From assembly GCF_003044035.1 (NCBI RefSeq), contig NZ_NVQC01000017.1, forward strand, positions 150,001-182,000: DNA of 32,000 bases, in the 5' to 3' direction. The DNA comes from Candidatus Methylomirabilis limnetica. Lineage in GTDB: Bacteria; Methylomirabilota; Methylomirabilia; Methylomirabilales; Methylomirabilaceae. How positions within the stretch are numbered: the stretch's first letter is position 1; every line of letters starts with the position of its first letter. The notes below the pieces were generated by a model, which saw nothing but the letters and a program-made list of their open reading frames with translations, was not told the origin of the DNA and searched no databases. The translations under genes were made by a program, and so were the position numbers. Below are positions 2,369-31,917 of the stretch, piece by piece.

Positions 2369-3175
2369 TCACGGTTTCTCTACCGTCACGATTCTGGTGG
2401 AACCGCACCGCAGAAACTTTCCCAGTGCCAAGTCGAGCGCCATCACGCGGCGGAAGAGGGCATTGAAGCGAGGGGCATCCTGCCTCCTGCGAAAAAGTAG
2501 CGATGGGGGGAACAGCATGGTCAGGATGTTCATGCTCCGGACATCAACAAGCCTGAGACCGTGTGCCTGCAGGAGGCGCGTAAGCTCTCGCCAGGTGAAG
2601 GTCTTAAACTGCATCTCTTTCCACTCCCGCAGGTGCCCGCCTCGAGTCGTCATGGCCTGCCACAGCTCCTTCGGGAGGTAGAGCAGGTCAGGACACCACT
2701 TCGAATCGACCTCGAACGAGATGAGGCCACTCGGTGCGCAGACGCGAACCATCTCTCGCAGCACCACATCAACCGCGGTGAAGTTGTGGCCGATGACATC
2801 GCCATAGGCGACCATGGCCTGGGCGCATCCATCTTCGAACGGTAGTTTCGTGATGTCGCCGGTCACAAGGCTGACGTTAGGCCGGCCATTGCATCGCCTG
2901 CGCGCCGCCTCGATCATCTGATCTGAAATATCGATCCCGACCACCCGCCCGGGCCGCGGTGCCAGCAGGACCGTCTGTTTCCCCGTCCCACACCCAAGGT
3001 CCAGCGCCATACCATCTGGCCTCTCGCGGACGATCCGTTCGACAGACTCCCTGTACACCTGGTAGCATTCGGCGAAATAAAACTGGTCCTCGATCTGGTC
3101 GTACTCCGCCAGCATGGCGTTATAGACAGCCGCCACATGGGAGCCGACATCATGCCGATTCGTCTGAGAGGTCAT
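2369..3175 (-). CDS. Class I SAM-dependent methyltransferase
   Basis: These are the last 268 codons of the 422-aa track ORF. I moved the start to ATG 3175 (MTSQTNRHDVGSHV...). The upstream part is an Arg/Pro/Gly-rich shadow that overlaps ald. SAM motif I is present (LDLGCGTGKQTVLLA), followed by VGIDISDQMIEAA. Confidence 0.8.
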   Translation of the reverse strand: MTSQTNRHDVGSHVAAVYNAMLAEYDQIEDQFYFAECYQVYRESVERIVRERPDGMALDLGCGTGKQTVLLAPRPGRVVGIDISDQMIEAARRRCNGRPNVSLVTGDITKLPFEDGCAQAMVAYGDVIGHNFTAVDVVLREMVRVCAPSGLISFEVDSKWCPDLLYLPKELWQAMTTRGGHLREWKEMQFKTFTWRELTRLLQAHGLRLVDVRSMNILTMLFPPSLLFRRRQDAPRFNALFRRVMALDLALGKFLRCGSTRIVTVEKP

Positions 3176-4395: not shown

Positions 4396-4470
4396 AAAAT
4401 CCCTCCTGACCTCCCTTTGCCAAAGGGAGGATGTACCCCTCTTTGGAAAAGAGGGGCGAGGGGAGATTTT
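4396..4470. repeat. Nested GC palindrome (family A, double-core copy)
   Basis: AAAATCCCTCC tga CCTCCCTTTgccAAAGGGAGG atgta CCCCTCTTTggAAAAGAGGGG cga GGGGAGATTTT. The outer arms enclose two inner hairpins. It lies in the gap between ald and the HAD gene. Confidence 0.7.
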
Positions 4471-8346: not shown

Positions 8347-8467
8347 GGGCAGCCACAAGGGCTGCCCCTACTTCGGACTCCGCACCAAACCCTCCCTAAC
8401 CCCCCTTTGATAAAGGGGGTAGCGGGGGGATTTACCTCACACCGGGCGCAGCAAGCAGCGCCCCTAC
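8347..8467. repeat. Composite repeat module: REP-like hairpin B + family-A palindrome + REP-like hairpin C
   Basis: GGGCAGCCacaagGGCTGCCCCTAC (8347-8371), then CAAACCCTCCCtaaCCCCCCTTTgatAAAGGGGGtagcGGGGGGATTT (8387-8433), then GGGCGCagcaagcaGCGCCCCTAC (8444-8467). The same three-part module recurs at 25163-25282. Confidence 0.8.
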
Positions 8468-13514: not shown

Positions 13515-13531
13515 GCTACCTCCTTGAAAAA

Positions 13532-13665
13532 CAGGGTATAGGGTGTAGGGTGTAGGGTTTAGAACTCACATGCCAACCTTTTTTATACCCTATACCCGTT
13601 TCCCTTTCCCCTATACCCCATACCCTCGTCTTTTACCCTATACCCTATACCCTCTACCCTATCCT
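13532..13665. repeat. Inverted repeat built from 7-nt tandem units (GGGTRTA)n ... (TAYACCC)n
   Basis: The left arm is GGGTATAGGGTGTAGGGTGTAGGGTTTAG. The spacer contains CATGCC and a T-run. The long right arm is ATACCCTATACCC...TACCCTATACCCTATACCCTCTACCCTATCC. On the minus strand the hairpin is followed by TTTTT just before the tolC RBS, which looks terminator- or attenuator-like. Confidence 0.8.
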
Positions 13666-15310: not shown

Positions 15311-15412
15311 AGGTATGGGGAAAGGGTCTGGGGTGTGGGGTGTAGGGTCTGGGGATACAAGGCATGGGTTTTTCTTTACACCCTACACCCTGAACCCTAT
15401 ACCCTGTCTTTC
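15311..15412. repeat. Second copy of the 7-nt-unit inverted repeat family
   Basis: GGTATGGGGAAAGGGTCTGGGGTGTGGGGTGTAGGGTCTGGGG, then a spacer with GGCATG and a T-run, then ACACCCTACACCCTGAACCCTATACCCTGTCTTTCC. It ends at the glcD stop codon. Confidence 0.8.
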
Positions 15413-16872: not shown

Positions 16873-16876
16873 GCTT

Positions 16877-16913
16877 ACCTATACCCTATCCCCTAAACCC
16901 TATACCCTGTCTT
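16877..16913. repeat. Half copy (C-rich arm) of the 7-nt-unit family
   Basis: ACCTATACCCTATCCCCTAAACCCTATACCCTGTCTT fills the 41-nt gap between the GlcE-like stop and the glcD start. Its 3' end (AACCCTATACCCTGTCTTTC) is the same as in the copy at 15395-15414. Confidence 0.75.
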
Positions 16914-18282: not shown

Positions 18283-18329
18283 AAATCCCCCCAACCCCCC
18301 TTTGGTAAAGGGGGGCGAGGGGGGATTTT
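18283..18329. repeat. Nested GC palindrome (family A, archetypal copy)
   Basis: AAATCCCCCCaaCCCCCCTTTggtAAAGGGGGGcgaGGGGGGATTTT. It lies in the gap between the aminotransferase stop and the GlcE-like start. Confidence 0.85.
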
Positions 18330-19718: not shown

Positions 19719-19751
19719 GCCGTTATCTCCTTCACTATAGCCTGCATAGCA

Positions 19752-19805
19752 GTTTTGAGTTTCGAGTCTGAAGTAAAGATTTCTCCACCCCGAAACTCGG
19801 CTCGG
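19752..19805. repeat. Degenerate copy of the GTTTCGA 7-nt-unit inverted repeat
   Basis: GTTTTGAGTTTCGAGTC, then a spacer, then CCGAAACTCGGCTCGG. It lies in the predicted 5' UTR of the aminotransferase gene and belongs to the same unit family as 30217-30291. Confidence 0.55.
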
Positions 19806-19807
19806 AG

Positions 19808-19836
19808 AACGTACCATGCCGTCATTTCACTGTCAA
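19808..19836 (-). promoter_or_regulatory. Candidate sigma70 promoter of the aminotransferase-glcE-glcD operon
   Basis: On the minus strand: TTGACA (19836..19831), a 17-nt spacer, then TACGTT (19813..19808). Confidence 0.35.
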
Positions 19837-19920: not shown

Positions 19921-20288
19921 ATGTAAATGTAATAAGTGTAACCTATTGTAAATACAGTGTTTTTTAACCAACAAATGATTATTTTCCCAAGCCCACAAAT
20001 GACTTGACAGTCGTGATGGAGTGGGCTAAAAGAGACGTCTCCTTAACAACGTCATGCGGGTAATTGCACATGAGACACGGTTTCCCACAGCCACCTTATC
20101 TGTCGAACTCGTCACGCGTCGGGGACGATGGGCCTCTTCATGAGGCGCGACAAGCATTTACGCCTTATCCACACCTGTGGATAACCCTGTGGATAATGGA
20201 AACCCCATCTGGCAAAGACTCTATAGGAATCGTACAGCATTTTCTTAATAGATTCAACAGGTTAGATAGGGAGGCTTCCTGTGGATAA
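19921..20288. other. Candidate oriC / dnaA regulatory region (AT-rich tract plus DnaA-box cluster)
   Basis: The stretch 19921-19990 is AT-rich (atgtaaatgtaataagtgtaacctattgtaaatacagtgttttttaaccaacaaatgattatttt) in an otherwise GC-rich window. Four perfect TTATCCACA boxes are present: 20165-20173 (+), 20176-20184 (-), 20188-20196 (-) and 20280-20288 (-). The last overlaps the dnaA GTG start. Confidence 0.65.
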
Positions 20289-21666
20289 CAATGGGCACGG
20301 TGCGCAGGTGAATCCGATCAATTCGTCCACCAGGGCACATGAGATCTGGCAAGAGGCCCTCTCAATCATCCAGGGTAAGGTCACACGCCAAAGCTTCGAC
20401 AATTGGTTTCGCCCCCTGGCCCTGGAGTCGTTGGAAGACTCATGCGTCACGGTTCAGCTCCCGAATCAATTCTTTAAGGAGTGGTTTGAGGACCACCATC
20501 TAACTGTACTCAAATCGGTACTCGCGGATCTGATGTTCGCCAGCGTCGAGGTCATCCTCCGCATTGCTGAGCCAGGGGGGCAGGGCGAGCCAGATGTAAA
20601 ACCCGAACCTGCCGTCAGACGACCAGTGAAGCGATTCCGGAACGAATCTGCAGTCCTCAACCCGAAGTATGTCTTCGAGAACTTCGTCGTAGGGAGCTCC
20701 AACCAGTTCGCCCACGCCGGCTGTCTGGCCGTGGCAGAGCAGCTTTCGAAAGCGTACAATCCGCTCTTTATCTATGGGGGCGTTGGCTTAGGGAAGACTC
20801 ACCTGCTCCATGCCATCGGCCACCTGGCCCTCAAGCGAAATAATAGGCTCAGGCTTGCCTATGTCTCATCCGAGAAGTTTACGAACGACCTGATTAATGC
20901 CATCCGTTTCGATTCCACTGGTGAGTTCCGCAACCGCTACCGTAGCCTGGACCTGCTTCTCATCGACGATATCCAGTTTATCGCCGGCAAAGAGCGGACC
21001 CAGGAGGAGTTCTTCCATACCTTTAATGATCTGTACGACTCCTCCAAGCAGATCGTGGTCACCTCTGACAGCCTCCCGCGCGAGATCCCCACGCTGGAGG
21101 AGCGGCTACGTTCCCGGTTCGAGTGGGGTCTGATCGCTGACATCCAGTTGCCGGACCTCGAGACCAAGGCTGCCATCCTTCGGAAAAAGGCGCAGGCGGA
21201 TGGCGCGCGGATCCCTGATGATGTCTCACTCTTTATCGCCAAGAACGTGCAGTCAAGTATCCGGGAACTGGAAGGCTCGTTGGTCCGCCTCATCGCCTAC
21301 GCCTCGCTGACGGGCCGCGACATCACCTTAGAGCTCGCCCAGGAGACACTGAAGGAACTGAACGCCGAGCGGGCCAAGGTCATCACGCTGACCGCCATAC
21401 AGCACACGGTGGCCGACTTCTATCGCGTCAAGGTCGAGGATCTCAAATCCAAGGGCAGAAACCAGGGTGTGGTTCTGCCGCGCCAGGTCGCCATGTACCT
21501 CAGTCGAACACTCACCGCCTCCTCGCTGCCGGTTATCGGCGAGGCGTTCGGCGGAAAGGACCATACGACAGTGATCCACTCCTGCGAGAAGATCAAGCGG
21601 AGGCTCGCAACGGATGAGGCATTCCGGCGACAAATCGACTCCCTCTCCCAAACGATCACCTCTTAG
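20281..21666 (+). CDS. dnaA: Chromosomal replication initiator protein DnaA
   Basis: GTG start with GGGAGG 6 nt upstream. Present are the AAA+ Walker A (GGVGLGKTHLL), Walker B (LLLIDDIQF), sensor/box VII (VVTSD) and the C-terminal DnaA-box binding signature (ARQVAMYLSRTLT...IGEAFGGKDHTTVIHS). Confidence 0.95.
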   Translation: MDNNGHGAQVNPINSSTRAHEIWQEALSIIQGKVTRQSFDNWFRPLALESLEDSCVTVQLPNQFFKEWFEDHHLTVLKSVLADLMFASVEVILRIAEPGGQGEPDVKPEPAVRRPVKRFRNESAVLNPKYVFENFVVGSSNQFAHAGCLAVAEQLSKAYNPLFIYGGVGLGKTHLLHAIGHLALKRNNRLRLAYVSSEKFTNDLINAIRFDSTGEFRNRYRSLDLLLIDDIQFIAGKERTQEEFFHTFNDLYDSSKQIVVTSDSLPREIPTLEERLRSRFEWGLIADIQLPDLETKAAILRKKAQADGARIPDDVSLFIAKNVQSSIRELEGSLVRLIAYASLTGRDITLELAQETLKELNAERAKVITLTAIQHTVADFYRVKVEDLKSKGRNQGVVLPRQVAMYLSRTLTASSLPVIGEAFGGKDHTTVIHSCEKIKRRLATDEAFRRQIDSLSQTITS

Positions 21667-21696: not shown

Positions 21697-21810
21697 CCCC
21701 CTCTCCCCCAGGCGGGAGAGGGCTGGGGTGAGGGGGTGCGTGTCCGCACAAAGCGCCCTCACCTGAACTCTCTCCCAGCCCTTAGGGCAGCCACAAGGGA
21801 CTGCCCCTAC
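21697..21810. repeat. Composite palindromic repeats downstream of dnaA, ending in REP-like hairpin B
   Basis: CCCTCTCCcccaggcgGGAGAGGG comes first. GGCTGGGGTGAGGG then pairs with CCCTCACC...CCCAGCC. The module ends with GGGCAGCCacaagGGACTGCCCCTAC (21785-21810). Confidence 0.7.
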
Positions 21811-21846
21811 ACACCCCGGACTGCGCTTTGCACATCGCATTGACCG

Positions 21847-21875
21847 TTGCCTAAACCGGACCGTTCACATATTAT
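21847..21875 (+). promoter_or_regulatory. Candidate promoter giving a leaderless transcript for the epimerase gene
   Basis: TTGCCT (21847-21852), a 17-nt spacer, TATTAT (21870-21875), then 6 nt to ATG 21882. There is no purine-rich SD in between. Confidence 0.3.
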
Positions 21876-22886: not shown

Positions 22887-22960
22887 AAAACCCCCACCCC
22901 CCCCTTTACAAAAGGGGGGGGTGGGGGTTTTGAATGTAGGGGCAGCCCTCGTGGCTGCCC
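22887..22960. repeat. Family-A palindrome plus inverted REP-like hairpin B between convergent genes (possible bidirectional terminator)
   Basis: CAAAACCCCCAcCCCCCCCTTTacaAAAGGGGGGGGtGGGGGTTTTG (22887-22932), followed by GTAGGGGCAGCCctcgtGGCTGCCC (22936-22960). Confidence 0.75.
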
Positions 22961-25114: not shown

Positions 25115-25282
25115 CAAACCCCCCTCACCCCCCTTTAAAGGGGGGTGACTTGAGGGTACTGAGGGCAGCCACAAGGGCTGCCCCTACACCCCGCGCTGCA
25201 CTAAATCTTTCCGTTCCCCCCTTTGATAAAGGGGGGTGAGGGGGGTTTACTCCATGCTGGGCGCAGCAAGCAGCGCCCCTAC
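25115..25282. repeat. Repeat cluster: half family-A palindrome followed by a second copy of the B + A + C module
   Basis: The half palindrome is CAAACCCCCCtcaCCCCCCTTTAAAGGGGGG (25115-25147). Hairpin B spans 25163-25187, TCCCCCCTTTgatAAAGGGGGGtgaGGGGGGTTTA spans 25215-25249, and hairpin C spans 25259-25282. Confidence 0.85.
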
Positions 25283-29307: not shown

Positions 29308-31917
29308 CTATGAGGACGCCGGCACGGCTGTGGGCTGAAATCTCCGTAAGCGGAGGGCATTGCTGACCACGGTGACCGAGGAGAGCGCCATGGCTGCGCC
29401 GGCCAGGACCGGACTCAGCATCACCCCCCACAACGGGTACAGGACGCCGGCGGCCACCGGGATCAGGACCACATTATAGGCAAATGCCCAAAACAGGTTC
29501 TGCTTGATGTTTCGCATCGTCAATCTACTTAACTGTAGCGCTGTCACGACGCTTCGCAGATCGCCCCCGATCAGGGTGATATCGGCCGCTTCCATCGCCA
29601 CATCGGTCCCTGTTCCGATGGCGATCCCGACATCGGCCTGGGCCAGGGCGGGGGCGTCATTGATCCCATCGCCCACCATGGCCACCAGCTTCCCCTGCTC
29701 CTGGAGCCTGCGAACTTCCAGCGCCTTATGTTCCGGCAGAACCTCCGCCATGATCCGGTCGATTCCGACCTGCCTGGCGATAGCCTCGGCGGTCCGACGG
29801 GTATCTCCGGTGATCACGGCCACCTCAATGCCCAGGTGACGTATGGCAACTACGGCCGACTGCGAATACGGCTTCACGACGTCGGCCACAGCCACAATGC
29901 CGAGGAGCCGGGCATCGGCGGCGACGAACATCGACGTCTTCCCCTCCCCCGAGAGCGCTTCCGCCTGCTCGCCCATCCCGGCGAGGTCAATCCCGCGCTC
30001 CCGCATCAGAGCGATATTGCCAAGGAGAATCTCCCGCCCCTCTACGACGGCCCTGATCCCATATCCAGGGATCGCCTTAAACTCCTGCGGCTCGGCCACG
30101 TCGAGCCCCTTTGCCTTGGCGTAATCAATGATCGCCTGTCCAAGCGGGTGCTCGGAGCCTTGTTCCGCCGATGCCGCAAGCCGAAGTAGCTCCCGCTCAT
30201 CCGGGCTCAGCGATAAGTTTCGAGTTTCGGGTTTCGGGTTTCTGGTCAAATTCGATGAAGAACTCGAAACTCGAAACTCGAAACTCGAAACAACATCCGT
30301 AACTACCGGCTGGCCGACGGTCAGCGTACCAGTCTTATCGAAAATGATCACGTTCACCTGGTAGGCTCGTTCAAGGCTCTCGGCGTTCTTGATCAGAATA
30401 CCGTACTCTGCCCCCTTCCCGATTCCGACCATAATCGACGTGGGCGTCGCGAGACCCAGGGCACAGGGGCAGGCGATCACCAGCACGGCCACGAAGTTCG
30501 AGAGGGCAACGAGAAACGCCTGCTCACCCCCGAGCAGCAGCCAGACCCCGAAGGTCACGACCGCGATAACCAGGACGATCGGCACAAAGACCCCGGCGAT
30601 CTTATCGACCAGTCGCTGGATGGGCGCCTTTGATCCCTGGGCCTGCTCGACCAATCGGACGATCTGGGCGAGGACGGTCTCTTGTCCCACCTTGGTCGCC
30701 TCGAACTTGAAGCTGCCCATCTTATTCATCGTTGCGCCAACCACCTGATCGCCCGGCCCCTTCTCCACAGGGAGGCTCTCCCCGGTCAGCATCGATTCAT
30801 CAAGCGCCGATCGACCCTCGCGGATAATCCCGTCCACCGGCACCTTCTCCCCCGGCCTGACCAATACCAGGTCGCCGGCCCTAACCTCCTCCACCGGGAT
30901 GTCTTGCGCGAGGTCCCCACGGATTACCCGAGCGGTCTTGGCCCGAAGTCCCATCAGTGTCTTAATCGCCTCAGAGGTCCGACCCTTCGCCTTGGCCTCA
31001 AGCCACCTTCCCATGACGATCAGGGTCATGAGGATGCTCGCTGTGTCGTAGTAGGTCATCGCCTCCATCCCCGTCGGAGCGATGGCCGCAGGGAAGAAGG
31101 TGAGCGCCGCACTGTACAGGTAGGCCGCATTCGTCCCGATCGACACCAGGGTGTTCATATCGGCGGTTCGGTGTTTCAGACTCATCCAGAACCCTCGATG
31201 GAACTGCCAGCCGACCCAGAACTGTACTGGTGTGGTAAGAACAAAGAGCAGGTTGGGGTTGGCGAGCAGCGAAGGCGCCCACGGGAACCAGTCCGGAAAA
31301 CTGCCAAGCAGGATGGGGACGCTCAGGGCCGCCCCAACCAGAAATCTGGTCCGAAGCAGGCGGATCTCCGCATCTGCTGTCGCCTTCTCCTGATCGGGCG
31401 TTGGGACAGCATCCATGTCCGGGACAACATACCCGGCCGCTTCGATTGAGTTGCGCAGATCAGCCGGCTGGGTGACGGCGTCAAGGTAGGTCACGCTCGC
31501 CCGCTCCGTTGCGAAGTTGACGGAGGCGGAGACCACCCCCGGGACTTCCAGCAACGTCTGCTCGATGCGCTGCACGCACGAGGCGCAAGACATCCCCCGG
31601 ATCGGGATCTCGACTACCCTCGTGTTCGCACGTTGCACCTCGGGCGCTACACTCAAAACCCCCCTTTGCCCCCCTTTGCTAAAGGGGGGGGCAGGTGGTT
31701 TTGGACTTTGCCCCTCTGCCTCTGCACGCCCTATCCCCATATTCCCCCCTTTCGTAAAGGGGGGGTGGGGGGGTTTAGTCACATACTGCTCCGGCGACTT
31801 GTCGAAGGCTTCTTTACAGCCCACCGCGCAGAAATAGTACTCTACCCCTCGGTAGCGGCTCGTGCCTGCGGCCTCCTCGGGGAGCACATCCATACCACAA
31901 ATCGGGTCTCTTGCCAT
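29308..31917 (-). CDS. copA: Copper-translocating P1B-type ATPase with N-terminal YHS/TRASH and HMA domains
   Basis: Domain and motif evidence: the YHS domain (DPICGMDV...[19 protein letters not shown]), the HMA motif GMSCASC, TGES, the CPC motif ([11 protein letters not shown]), DKTGTLT, SEHPLG and [10 protein letters not shown]. Confidence 0.93.
30217..30291. repeat. Inverted repeat of 7-nt units (GTTTCGR)4 ... (CTCGAAA)4 lying in frame inside copA
   Basis: GTTTCGAGTTTCGGGTTTCGGGTTTCTGG, then a 17-nt spacer, then CTCGAAACTCGAAACTCGAAACTCGAAAC. It is translated as [25 protein letters not shown]. Confidence 0.85.
31654..31777. repeat. Two family-A GC palindromes lying in frame inside copA
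   Basis: The two copies are CAAAACCCCCCTTTGCCCCCCTTTgctAAAGGGGGGGGcaGGTGGTTTTGG (31654-31703) and TCCCCCCTTTcgtAAAGGGGGGGtGGGGGGGTTTA (31743-31777). They are translated as [11 protein letters not shown]...[13 protein letters not shown] in the linker between the YHS and HMA domains. Confidence 0.85.

Follow-up and report, generated by a model that had tools for sequence, protein, structure and literature searches.

Heptamer-array hairpin cassettes translated within CopA of Candidatus Methylomirabilis limnetica and its NC10 relatives

Introduction

How does the gene for a copper pump come to carry, in the middle of its open reading frame (ORF), an inverted repeat built of seven-nucleotide units, and what keeps it there? 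The question is raised by copA in a 32,000-nt stretch of Candidatus Methylomirabilis limnetica (contig NZ_NVQC01000017.1, positions 150,001-182,000; hereafter the window, in whose coordinates all positions are given unless another locus is named), where a 75-nt element lies at 30217-30291, with tandem copies of a 7-nt unit facing each other in inverted orientation across a short loop. We compared the window's own copA allele (WIN) with orthologous DNA from 13 relatives, giving 14 loci, and found that the history of this cassette is decoupled from that of the copA sequence that flanks it. The explanation that we favor, and hold to be probable, is that the element is a heptamer palindrome resembling the STRR repeats of cyanobacteria, tolerated in a permissive loop of the protein, kept in frame by selection, resized by slippage, held palindromic by templating or weak selection, and swapped as a cassette between alleles.

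The element and its place in CopA

The host gene occupies 29308-31917 on the minus strand; its product, 869 aa long, is a Cu+ P-type ATPase with YHS, HMA, E1-E2 ATPase and HAD domains. Its translation carries the DKTGT, CPC and SEHPL motifs and the HMA domain of a CopA (P1B-1) pump, matches AfCopA and LpCopA at E = 1e-57, and has relatives that show the Pfam architecture of CopA, the closest of them named Candidatus Methylomirabilis or NC10. Read on the plus strand, the element consists of GTTTCGA, GTTTCGG, GTTTCGG and GTTTCTG, an 18-nt spacer (GTCAAATTCGATGAAGAA) and four copies of CTCGAAA followed by C. On the coding strand, the 5' arm, (GTTTCGA)4 at 30264-30291, comprises 4.4 perfect units and encodes (V)SSFEFRVSS; the hairpin loop (the spacer of about 18 nt, 30245-30263) encodes SSSSNL; and the 3' arm (30217-30244) reads CAGAAAC, CCGAAAC, CCGAAAC and TCGAAAC. 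Tandem Repeats Finder delimits period-7 arrays at 30216-30242 (3.9 copies) and 30261-30291 (4.4 copies, 100% match), and a repeat search returns 26-nt inverted arms that are 92% complementary, bearing out the heptamer-unit inverted repeat that an earlier note on this DNA had described. A 14-mer of two units (GTTTCGAGTTTCGA), with up to two mismatches, occurs six times in the window, against a mean of 0.21 in shuffled sequence; none of 100 shuffles reached six.

The element lies wholly inside copA and in frame, adding about 25 residues. When the window protein is aligned to the solved structures of A. fulgidus CopA (2B8E) and CopB (3SKY), a gap of 25-26 residues coincides exactly with the insert peptide, and the distance from DKTGT to SEHP, 65 aa in the window protein, is 41 aa in the majority of some 64 distant CopAs. 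Since solved and distant CopAs have about one residue where the window protein carries the insert, the insert is lineage-specific, in agreement with the earlier suggestion of an in-frame, lineage-specific insertion where characterised CopAs have few residues. An AlphaFold2 model built from 60 homologues (mean predicted local distance difference test, pLDDT, 80.4) places the insert between a strand (residues 538-544) and a helix (572-585), with pLDDT below 50 for residues 550-566 and no secondary structure. The site is thereby predicted to be a disordered surface loop, specifically the first loop of the N-domain that leads from a strand to a helix, directly after the P/N hinge. The placement in a surface loop had been anticipated correctly, while the proposed location in the hinge itself has to be moved to the loop immediately after it (below, the hinge loop).

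Cassette turnover across NC10 relatives

The canonical spacing of 41 aa is found in just 24 of the 120 best CopA hits; the rest depart from it by -2 to +74 residues, nearly always through insertions, and the inserted peptides show a 7-aa periodicity, as expected of translated heptamers. Where DNA accompanies the orthologues, the hinge inserts are period-7 arrays, and the unit differs between families. Specifically, the cassette is (GTTTCGA)4 .. (CGAAACY)4 in WIN, L081 and L172, the latter two also keeping the loop sequence; (GTKCCRA)5-7 .. (GGAACCY)4-10 in L083 and L167; (GTTCACA)4-8 .. (GTGAACC)4 in L168 and L173; (GTGCGAR)8 .. (GCACCCC)4 in L170; and (CGTTCAA)2 .. (CTCGAAC)3 in L171, whose protein is 57% identical. 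Two arrays with non-complementary arms are present in L084 and L085, L086 has a single array, and L002, with a spacing of 39 aa, has none. Cassettes range from about 75 to 135 nt across the orthologues. As to sampling, a search of genome contigs with full-length CopA returned almost solely distant CopAs, which serve as no-insert controls, together with one NC10 locus (L002). A search of metagenome contigs with a 251-aa CopA fragment recovered no close relatives, and 508 of its 600 pattern matches were not CopA, possibly owing to the back-translated NPKPETRN pattern.

The two arms of one orthologue pair with energies of -31 kcal/mol (sense) and -41 kcal/mol (antisense), whereas arms taken from different orthologues reach only -14 and -20 kcal/mol. 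As the far better pairing within than between orthologues shows, complementarity has persisted even where the unit was changed completely; it has also disappeared several times while copA was retained. From these comparisons, the hinge loop is a clade-wide hot spot for heptamer arrays in NC10 CopA and not the site of a single invasion event. The earlier picture of an extragenic repeat that invaded a coding sequence therefore survives insofar as heptamer hairpins and two other palindrome families do lie between genes (see below), and gives way to clade-wide cassette turnover where it implied one invasion. Given the non-complementary arms of L084 and L085, the lone array of L086 and the absence of any array from L002, the cassette is likely not needed for copper transport, as far as sequence comparison can tell.

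Assemblers handle palindromic simple repeats badly, and the data are metagenomic throughout, so an assembly or sequencing artefact, the possibility against which the earlier note had hedged, has to be considered. The same cassette was recovered, however, from independent assemblies and samples, specifically from P0045 (99% identical; JGI), from P0001 on five contigs (ENA, NCBI and JGI) and from L172, which comes from another JGI sample, always with the reading frame kept. We regard an artefact as effectively refuted.

In L167, L172 and L173, most 100-nt windows flanking the hinge are 97-100% identical and a few are 89-96% identical, with three unrelated cassettes between them; the differences cover the arms, the loop and a few flanking codons. 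The opposite is seen for L081 and L172, which differ at 138 of 600 flanking nucleotides (23%) yet at 3 of 104 cassette nucleotides, while the closer pair, WIN and L081, differs at 51 of 600 and 14 of 104, respectively. Further, a 28-nt left arm, including an idiosyncratic order of variant units, is identical in L083 and L167, in backgrounds that are 75% identical, and cassette families are interleaved on a neighbor-joining tree of the CopA core. Such incongruence between gene and cassette is the signature of cassette replacement or exchange. The routes of transfer compatible with the data may include short-patch recombination between strains, gene conversion from another copy, or a hairpin-directed mechanism.

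Two further observations concern the surroundings of the cassette. First, a second, small hairpin (7-10 bp; for example, CGCAACAGC GAGA GCTGTTGCG), formed by the conserved QQRELLR codons, stands directly 3' of the cassette in L167, L168, L169 and L172. Second, the N-terminal linker of CopA, between YHS and HMA, is a second heptamer-array hot spot, with (ACGCTCC)5 in L085, GCGAGGY units in L081 and L083, and CCTCNCA units in L084. This linker is likewise disordered in the AlphaFold2 model (pLDDT below 50 for residues 48-96). In the alignment of N-termini (window 31600-31800), the window protein has a single HMA domain after YHS, and many close relatives have two.

Reading frame, stop codons and unit number

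Every allele is in frame and free of stops through the hinge. In a single array, that of L168, the consensus would place a TGA in frame, and precisely the unit concerned reads TCA; L173 is patched likewise. P0030 and P0005 (91-95% identical) lack exactly FEFRVSS, that is, three left-arm units (21 nt, 7 aa), which leaves the left arm with one unit in place of four and the frame intact; this is the only unit-number polymorphism observed among the assembled alleles. The retention of frame, the patched TGA and the three-unit change together argue that the element is translated and not removed from the RNA. We rejected RNA splicing or excision of the hairpin on the grounds that the alleles are in frame and stop-free and that the TGA is patched to TCA.

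Since seven is not a multiple of three, slippage by a single unit would truncate CopA, and the array could, in line with the on/off switch suggested in the earlier note, be a contingency (phase-variation) locus: adding or dropping one or two units would put the gene out of or back into frame and so turn the copper pump off or on. The number of left-arm units does vary between close relatives (four versus one), and heptanucleotides are reported to be the commonest long simple repeats in prokaryotes and, among long repeat classes, the one most prone to slippage (PMC4679880, citing Mrazek and colleagues). With four units per arm, however, the arrays are shorter than a fast switch would call for; interruptions and variant units, which dampen slippage, occur often; and the polymorphism actually observed preserves the frame. 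Moreover, none of the 14 loci is frameshifted at its hinge or linker heptamer arrays. The sole split copA, in L170 (1413-3923 of that locus), is divided into two ORFs by a stop near 1877, after the HMA-domain region and away from the heptamer arrays; we considered it as a phase-off allele and rejected it because the stop is not at any such array, and it may be a pseudogene or an assembly error. A contingency switch at this site, though mechanistically possible, is on balance highly improbable.

The same alleles bear on whether the inserted peptide is itself functional, as a regulatory or interaction loop of the N-domain, with the periodicity of its DNA incidental. An insert is retained at the hinge in most of the clade, and right-arm readings are consistently Pro-rich, which suggests some filtering at the protein level. 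Against this, the sequence and length of the peptide change completely between nearly identical proteins, the peptide is of low complexity and predicted to be disordered, and it is absent in some relatives, while periodicity and arm complementarity are properties of nucleic acid. We give a functional peptide very little credence, slightly less than the contingency switch.

Folding and strand asymmetry

The sense RNA of the element folds at -39.4 kcal/mol, compared with -21.4 +/- 3.0 kcal/mol in dinucleotide shuffles (z = -5.9; none of 200 as stable), in line with the long mRNA hairpin that had been proposed. Any effect of the cassette would probably be exerted on nucleic acid, for example, through a mid-ORF mRNA hairpin of about 30 bp that slows ribosomes or alters mRNA decay. 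This leads to the alternative of a selected, cis-acting RNA hairpin within the ORF, which would pause ribosomes between the phosphorylation motif and the N-domain, or provide an RNase- or protein-binding site that tunes copA mRNA. Such a hairpin would account for the fold itself, for the co-variation of the arms and the survival of complementarity through complete changes of unit, for a hairpin at the equivalent codon in relatives as distant as about 57% identity, and for a cassette far more conserved than its flanks in L081 and L172. It sits poorly, however, with the loss of complementarity or arrays from intact genes (L084, L085, L086, L002, P0032 and P0047), with the loss of one arm in P0030 and P0005, with an A.C mismatch in nearly every sense unit, and with the lack of any match to Rfam covariance models at gathering score across the whole window. 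In addition, like hairpins are scattered in intergenic DNA, so that no role specific to copA is needed. We therefore view a selected regulatory hairpin as unlikely, without dismissing it.

Strand asymmetry bears on the same alternative. Seven of eight hinge hairpins fold more stably on the antisense than on the mRNA strand, by 5-20 kcal/mol, and the A.C mismatches on the sense strand of the asymmetric hairpins are G.U pairs on the antisense strand. Antisense-favored folding was observed in the copA hairpins of the window, L081, L083, L167, L168, L170 and L171, and also in an intergenic hairpin at 15318-15410. In every cassette family, deviation from a perfect right arm turns Leu, Phe or Ser codons into Pro, which makes protein-level filtering one candidate cause of the asymmetry; a preference for Pro over Leu codons is a possible form of it. 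Alternatively, selection may act against an over-stable mRNA hairpin, or the hairpin may form on the other strand. Explanations based on cytosine deamination and on replication strand were tried and set aside, as neither fits gene orientation or GC skew.

Origin and maintenance of the cassette

The reading that we prefer, an STRR-like palindrome tolerated in a permissive loop, would work as follows. Replication slippage would alter the number of units, and only those changes that keep the frame would survive. Intrastrand (quasi-palindrome) template switching, or else selection acting on the hairpin, would keep the arms nearly complementary. Cassettes of about 100 nt would be replaced whole, or swapped from one copA allele to another, without the flanking gene following suit. 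Finally, translation would act as a filter that excludes stop codons and favors Pro-rich over Leu-rich readings. The anatomy of the element, its place in the loop, its distribution among lineages, the co-variation of the arms, the separate history of the cassette and the patched stop codon are shown by the sequences; slippage, template switching, the way in which cassettes are transferred and an influence on expression are inferred.

Several points weigh against this account. It does not predict the better folding of the antisense strand. Some unit families are a single substitution apart, and the right arm of L083 holds a GAAACC unit of the GTTTCGA family, so that rapid concerted evolution in situ could explain part of the diversity. 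The near-identity of the L081 and L172 cassettes could reflect strong constraint at the nucleotide level rather than transfer, and the co-variation of arms fits a functional hairpin equally well. As to machinery, a scan of 20 window ORFs (1-21.7 kb) turned up no gene for a transposase or RAYT-type protein, and hinge DNA comparisons of the orthologues revealed no evident target-site duplication at the cassette ends. All of the comparison sequences, moreover, are metagenome assemblies, which limits the data.

A bolder proposal goes beyond the tolerated palindrome. Methylomirabilota might carry a so far undescribed class of tiny, translation-compatible mobile elements, namely, heptamer-array hairpin cassettes of about 75-135 nt that are moved or exchanged as units, home to existing hairpin sites, including one loop codon of copA, and are maintained by hairpin-templated copying without any element-encoded protein. 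We put this forward tentatively, as a conjecture with perhaps one chance in a few. In a stronger version, the host may have co-opted the copA copy as an intragenic regulatory hairpin.

Repeats elsewhere in the window and in related loci

Heptamer arrays are not confined to copA. Period-7 arrays number 21 per 100 kb in the NC10 loci (9 outside copA), in a sample of about 200 kb made up of loci rather than a whole genome, versus 2.9 in 159 other loci, and no enrichment is seen for any other period. A degenerate hairpin of the GTTTCGA family (19745-19812, minus strand), with one or two units per arm, lies about 10 kb from copA and has an orthologous counterpart in L081 at 21809-21866. The earlier note had reported this copy, at 19752-19805, in a 5' untranslated region; the copy is real, but the gene in whose probable 5' leader it sits encodes a class-III aminotransferase (minus strand), not CopA. 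Intergenic inverted arrays of other units are found at 13531-13660, (AGGGTGT)4 ... (TATACCC)~11, between an OEP/TolC-like gene and a hypothetical gene, and at 15324-15405, (GGGTSTG)4 ... (TACACCC)4, between FAD-oxidase and ECF sigma-factor genes. A single-arm array, (CCCTATA)~4.5 at 16875-16908, abuts the start codon of a minus-strand FAD-oxidase gene on its upstream side. These three follow the pattern of (GGGTRTA)n paired with (TAYACCC)n between same-strand genes, and the G-rich arm matches a G3N4 quadruplex motif.

Two further palindrome families are dispersed in the window. The first, a 21-nt palindrome (CCCCCCTTTNNNAAAGGGGGG), has eight sites against none expected, most of them intergenic; its members lie at 4410-4456, 8400-8420, 18295-18315, 22898-22919, 25216-25236, 31669-31689 and 31744-31764. 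The last two are in frame in the disordered YHS-HMA linker of CopA, where the copy at 31744-31764 (CCCCCCTTTCGTAAAGGGGGG) encodes PPFTKGG and that at 31669-31689 encodes PPFSKGG; a PPF(T/A/S)KGG motif is common to the close CopA relatives. The other family, REP-like and of the form GGGCAGCC-N5-GGCTGCCC, has three sites (8347-8367, 22940-22960 and 25163-25183), each about 50 nt from a 21-nt palindrome. It recurs in L081 at about 16582, 18762 and 19895, where it adjoins GTGCGAA-type heptamer arrays, the two together forming composite intergenic elements. Orthologous intergenic sites hold different palindromic elements in different genomes, which indicates that turnover of the kind seen in copA also takes place outside it.

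The related loci added further observations. IS110 and IS21 genes occur in them with no link to the heptamer arrays. In L171, a minus-strand M16 peptidase gene has long (GCGTGAA)n arrays (2865-2947 and 3027-3058 of that locus) inside its annotated N-terminus or shortly upstream of it; this may be another instance of heptamer arrays within coding sequence, unless the gene call is over-extended. A peptide search with the cassette translation returned just short, spurious ORFs over arrays and no other host protein families. In IMG/VR, (GTTTCGR)3 was present in 32 stretches and a shuffled control, (GTCTTGR)3, in 36, and most viral matches were plain direct arrays. A shared heptamer unit was considered as evidence of dispersal and rejected as weak, as it also is for common origin, given that the control unit is equally frequent. 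Across these viral loci (L174-L283), tandem triplets of each tested heptamer, the shuffled control included, were present in 15-36 contigs, and GC content was very different; one group of AT-rich contigs shows a conserved context around (GTTTCGG)4-6. Finally, dnaA lies at 20281-21666 in the window, with GC skew negative on both sides; as the skew does not change sign there, the replication origin is probably not adjacent.

Significance and comparison with known systems

For annotation, these results account for an odd, low-complexity insert in NC10 CopA, whose length variation reflects repeat DNA and not domain evolution. Beyond annotation, copA offers a natural experiment, in which a palindromic simple-sequence repeat sits in an essential-type enzyme and one site can be compared over dozens of alleles. 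Comparison of these alleles could separate the contributions of slippage, arm-to-arm homogenisation, cassette exchange and translational filtering. If it is true that the hairpin affects expression, it would represent a rare conserved mid-ORF structure in the mRNA of a bacterial membrane pump.

The closest parallel is provided by the STRR (short tandemly repeated repetitive) heptamers of heterocystous cyanobacteria, whose canonical units are CCCCAGT and others. Work by Vioque in 1997 is said to have placed STRR arrays inside the RNase P RNA gene. The likeness is considerable: STRRs are tandem 7-nt units, often in inverted arrays that form hairpins, come in several unit families per genome, and can sit in a permissive place of a functional gene, where they vary from strain to strain. 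In cyanobacteria, they form hairpins between co-transcribed genes (hupS-hupL) and in leaders (PMC2670836). The NC10 repeats share with them the tandem 7-nt arrays and the dispersed, mainly intergenic copies in several unit families. Unlike STRRs, the copA element belongs to NC10 (Methylomirabilota), uses other units (GTTTCGA, GGGTATA and others), is translated within a protein ORF, shows filtering for frame and stops, and occupies one orthologous codon position that is a clade-wide hot spot with cassette replacement. Given its host and its non-canonical units, we regard it as analogous to STRRs and not as a member of the named families. STRR-type heptamer hairpins, mainly cyanobacterial so far, are thereby extended to another phylum and to translated sequence.

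A translated palindrome also recalls the Rickettsia palindromic elements (RPEs), palindromic repeats that lie in frame in unrelated protein genes and are translated at fold-compatible positions (PMC10969869). The copA element, likewise, is a palindromic repeat in frame in a protein-coding gene. RPEs, however, are about 100-150 bp long, encode a conserved peptide family and lack tandem heptamers, whereas the copA cassettes (about 75-135 nt) are simple sequence, hypervariable in unit and length, and concentrated, in the sample studied, at one site and in a second linker of the same gene. A conserved 100-150-bp sequence and peptide recurring in many unrelated genes, the mark of an RPE family, is not what the copA cassettes present.

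As described in the cited part of a study of Geobacter metallireducens, the GGACCGG family consists of four tandem heptanucleotide units, with 49 copies within and between genes (PMC2700814). It thus resembles our elements, on that description, in having four heptanucleotide units and in being both intragenic and intergenic. It differs in being a single conserved family of direct repeats, with a proposed role as regulatory RNA, and the part cited describes neither inverted arms nor turnover at orthologous sites. REP, REPIN and MITE-type repeats are short, dispersed intergenic palindromes with selfish dynamics (PMC3116915), and the window carries two REP-like dispersed palindrome families of its own. 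Unlike them, the copA element has arms that are tandem arrays and not a unique sequence; it shows no evident terminal inverted repeats with target-site duplication, and the 20 window ORFs scanned include no RAYT or transposase gene.

What the copA element has in common with contingency loci is a tandem repeat inside an ORF, with a unit length that three does not divide. It differs in having few units, a paired inverted array and no frameshift at the arrays in the assembled alleles, and in residing in a housekeeping metal pump of a free-living host, not in a surface antigen. Our literature search found no publication linking Methylomirabilis with heptanucleotide repeats. Set beside these systems, what is new in the copA element is its phylum, its translated context, its single orthologous hot spot, where cassettes switch and arms co-vary, and the visible patching of stop codons.

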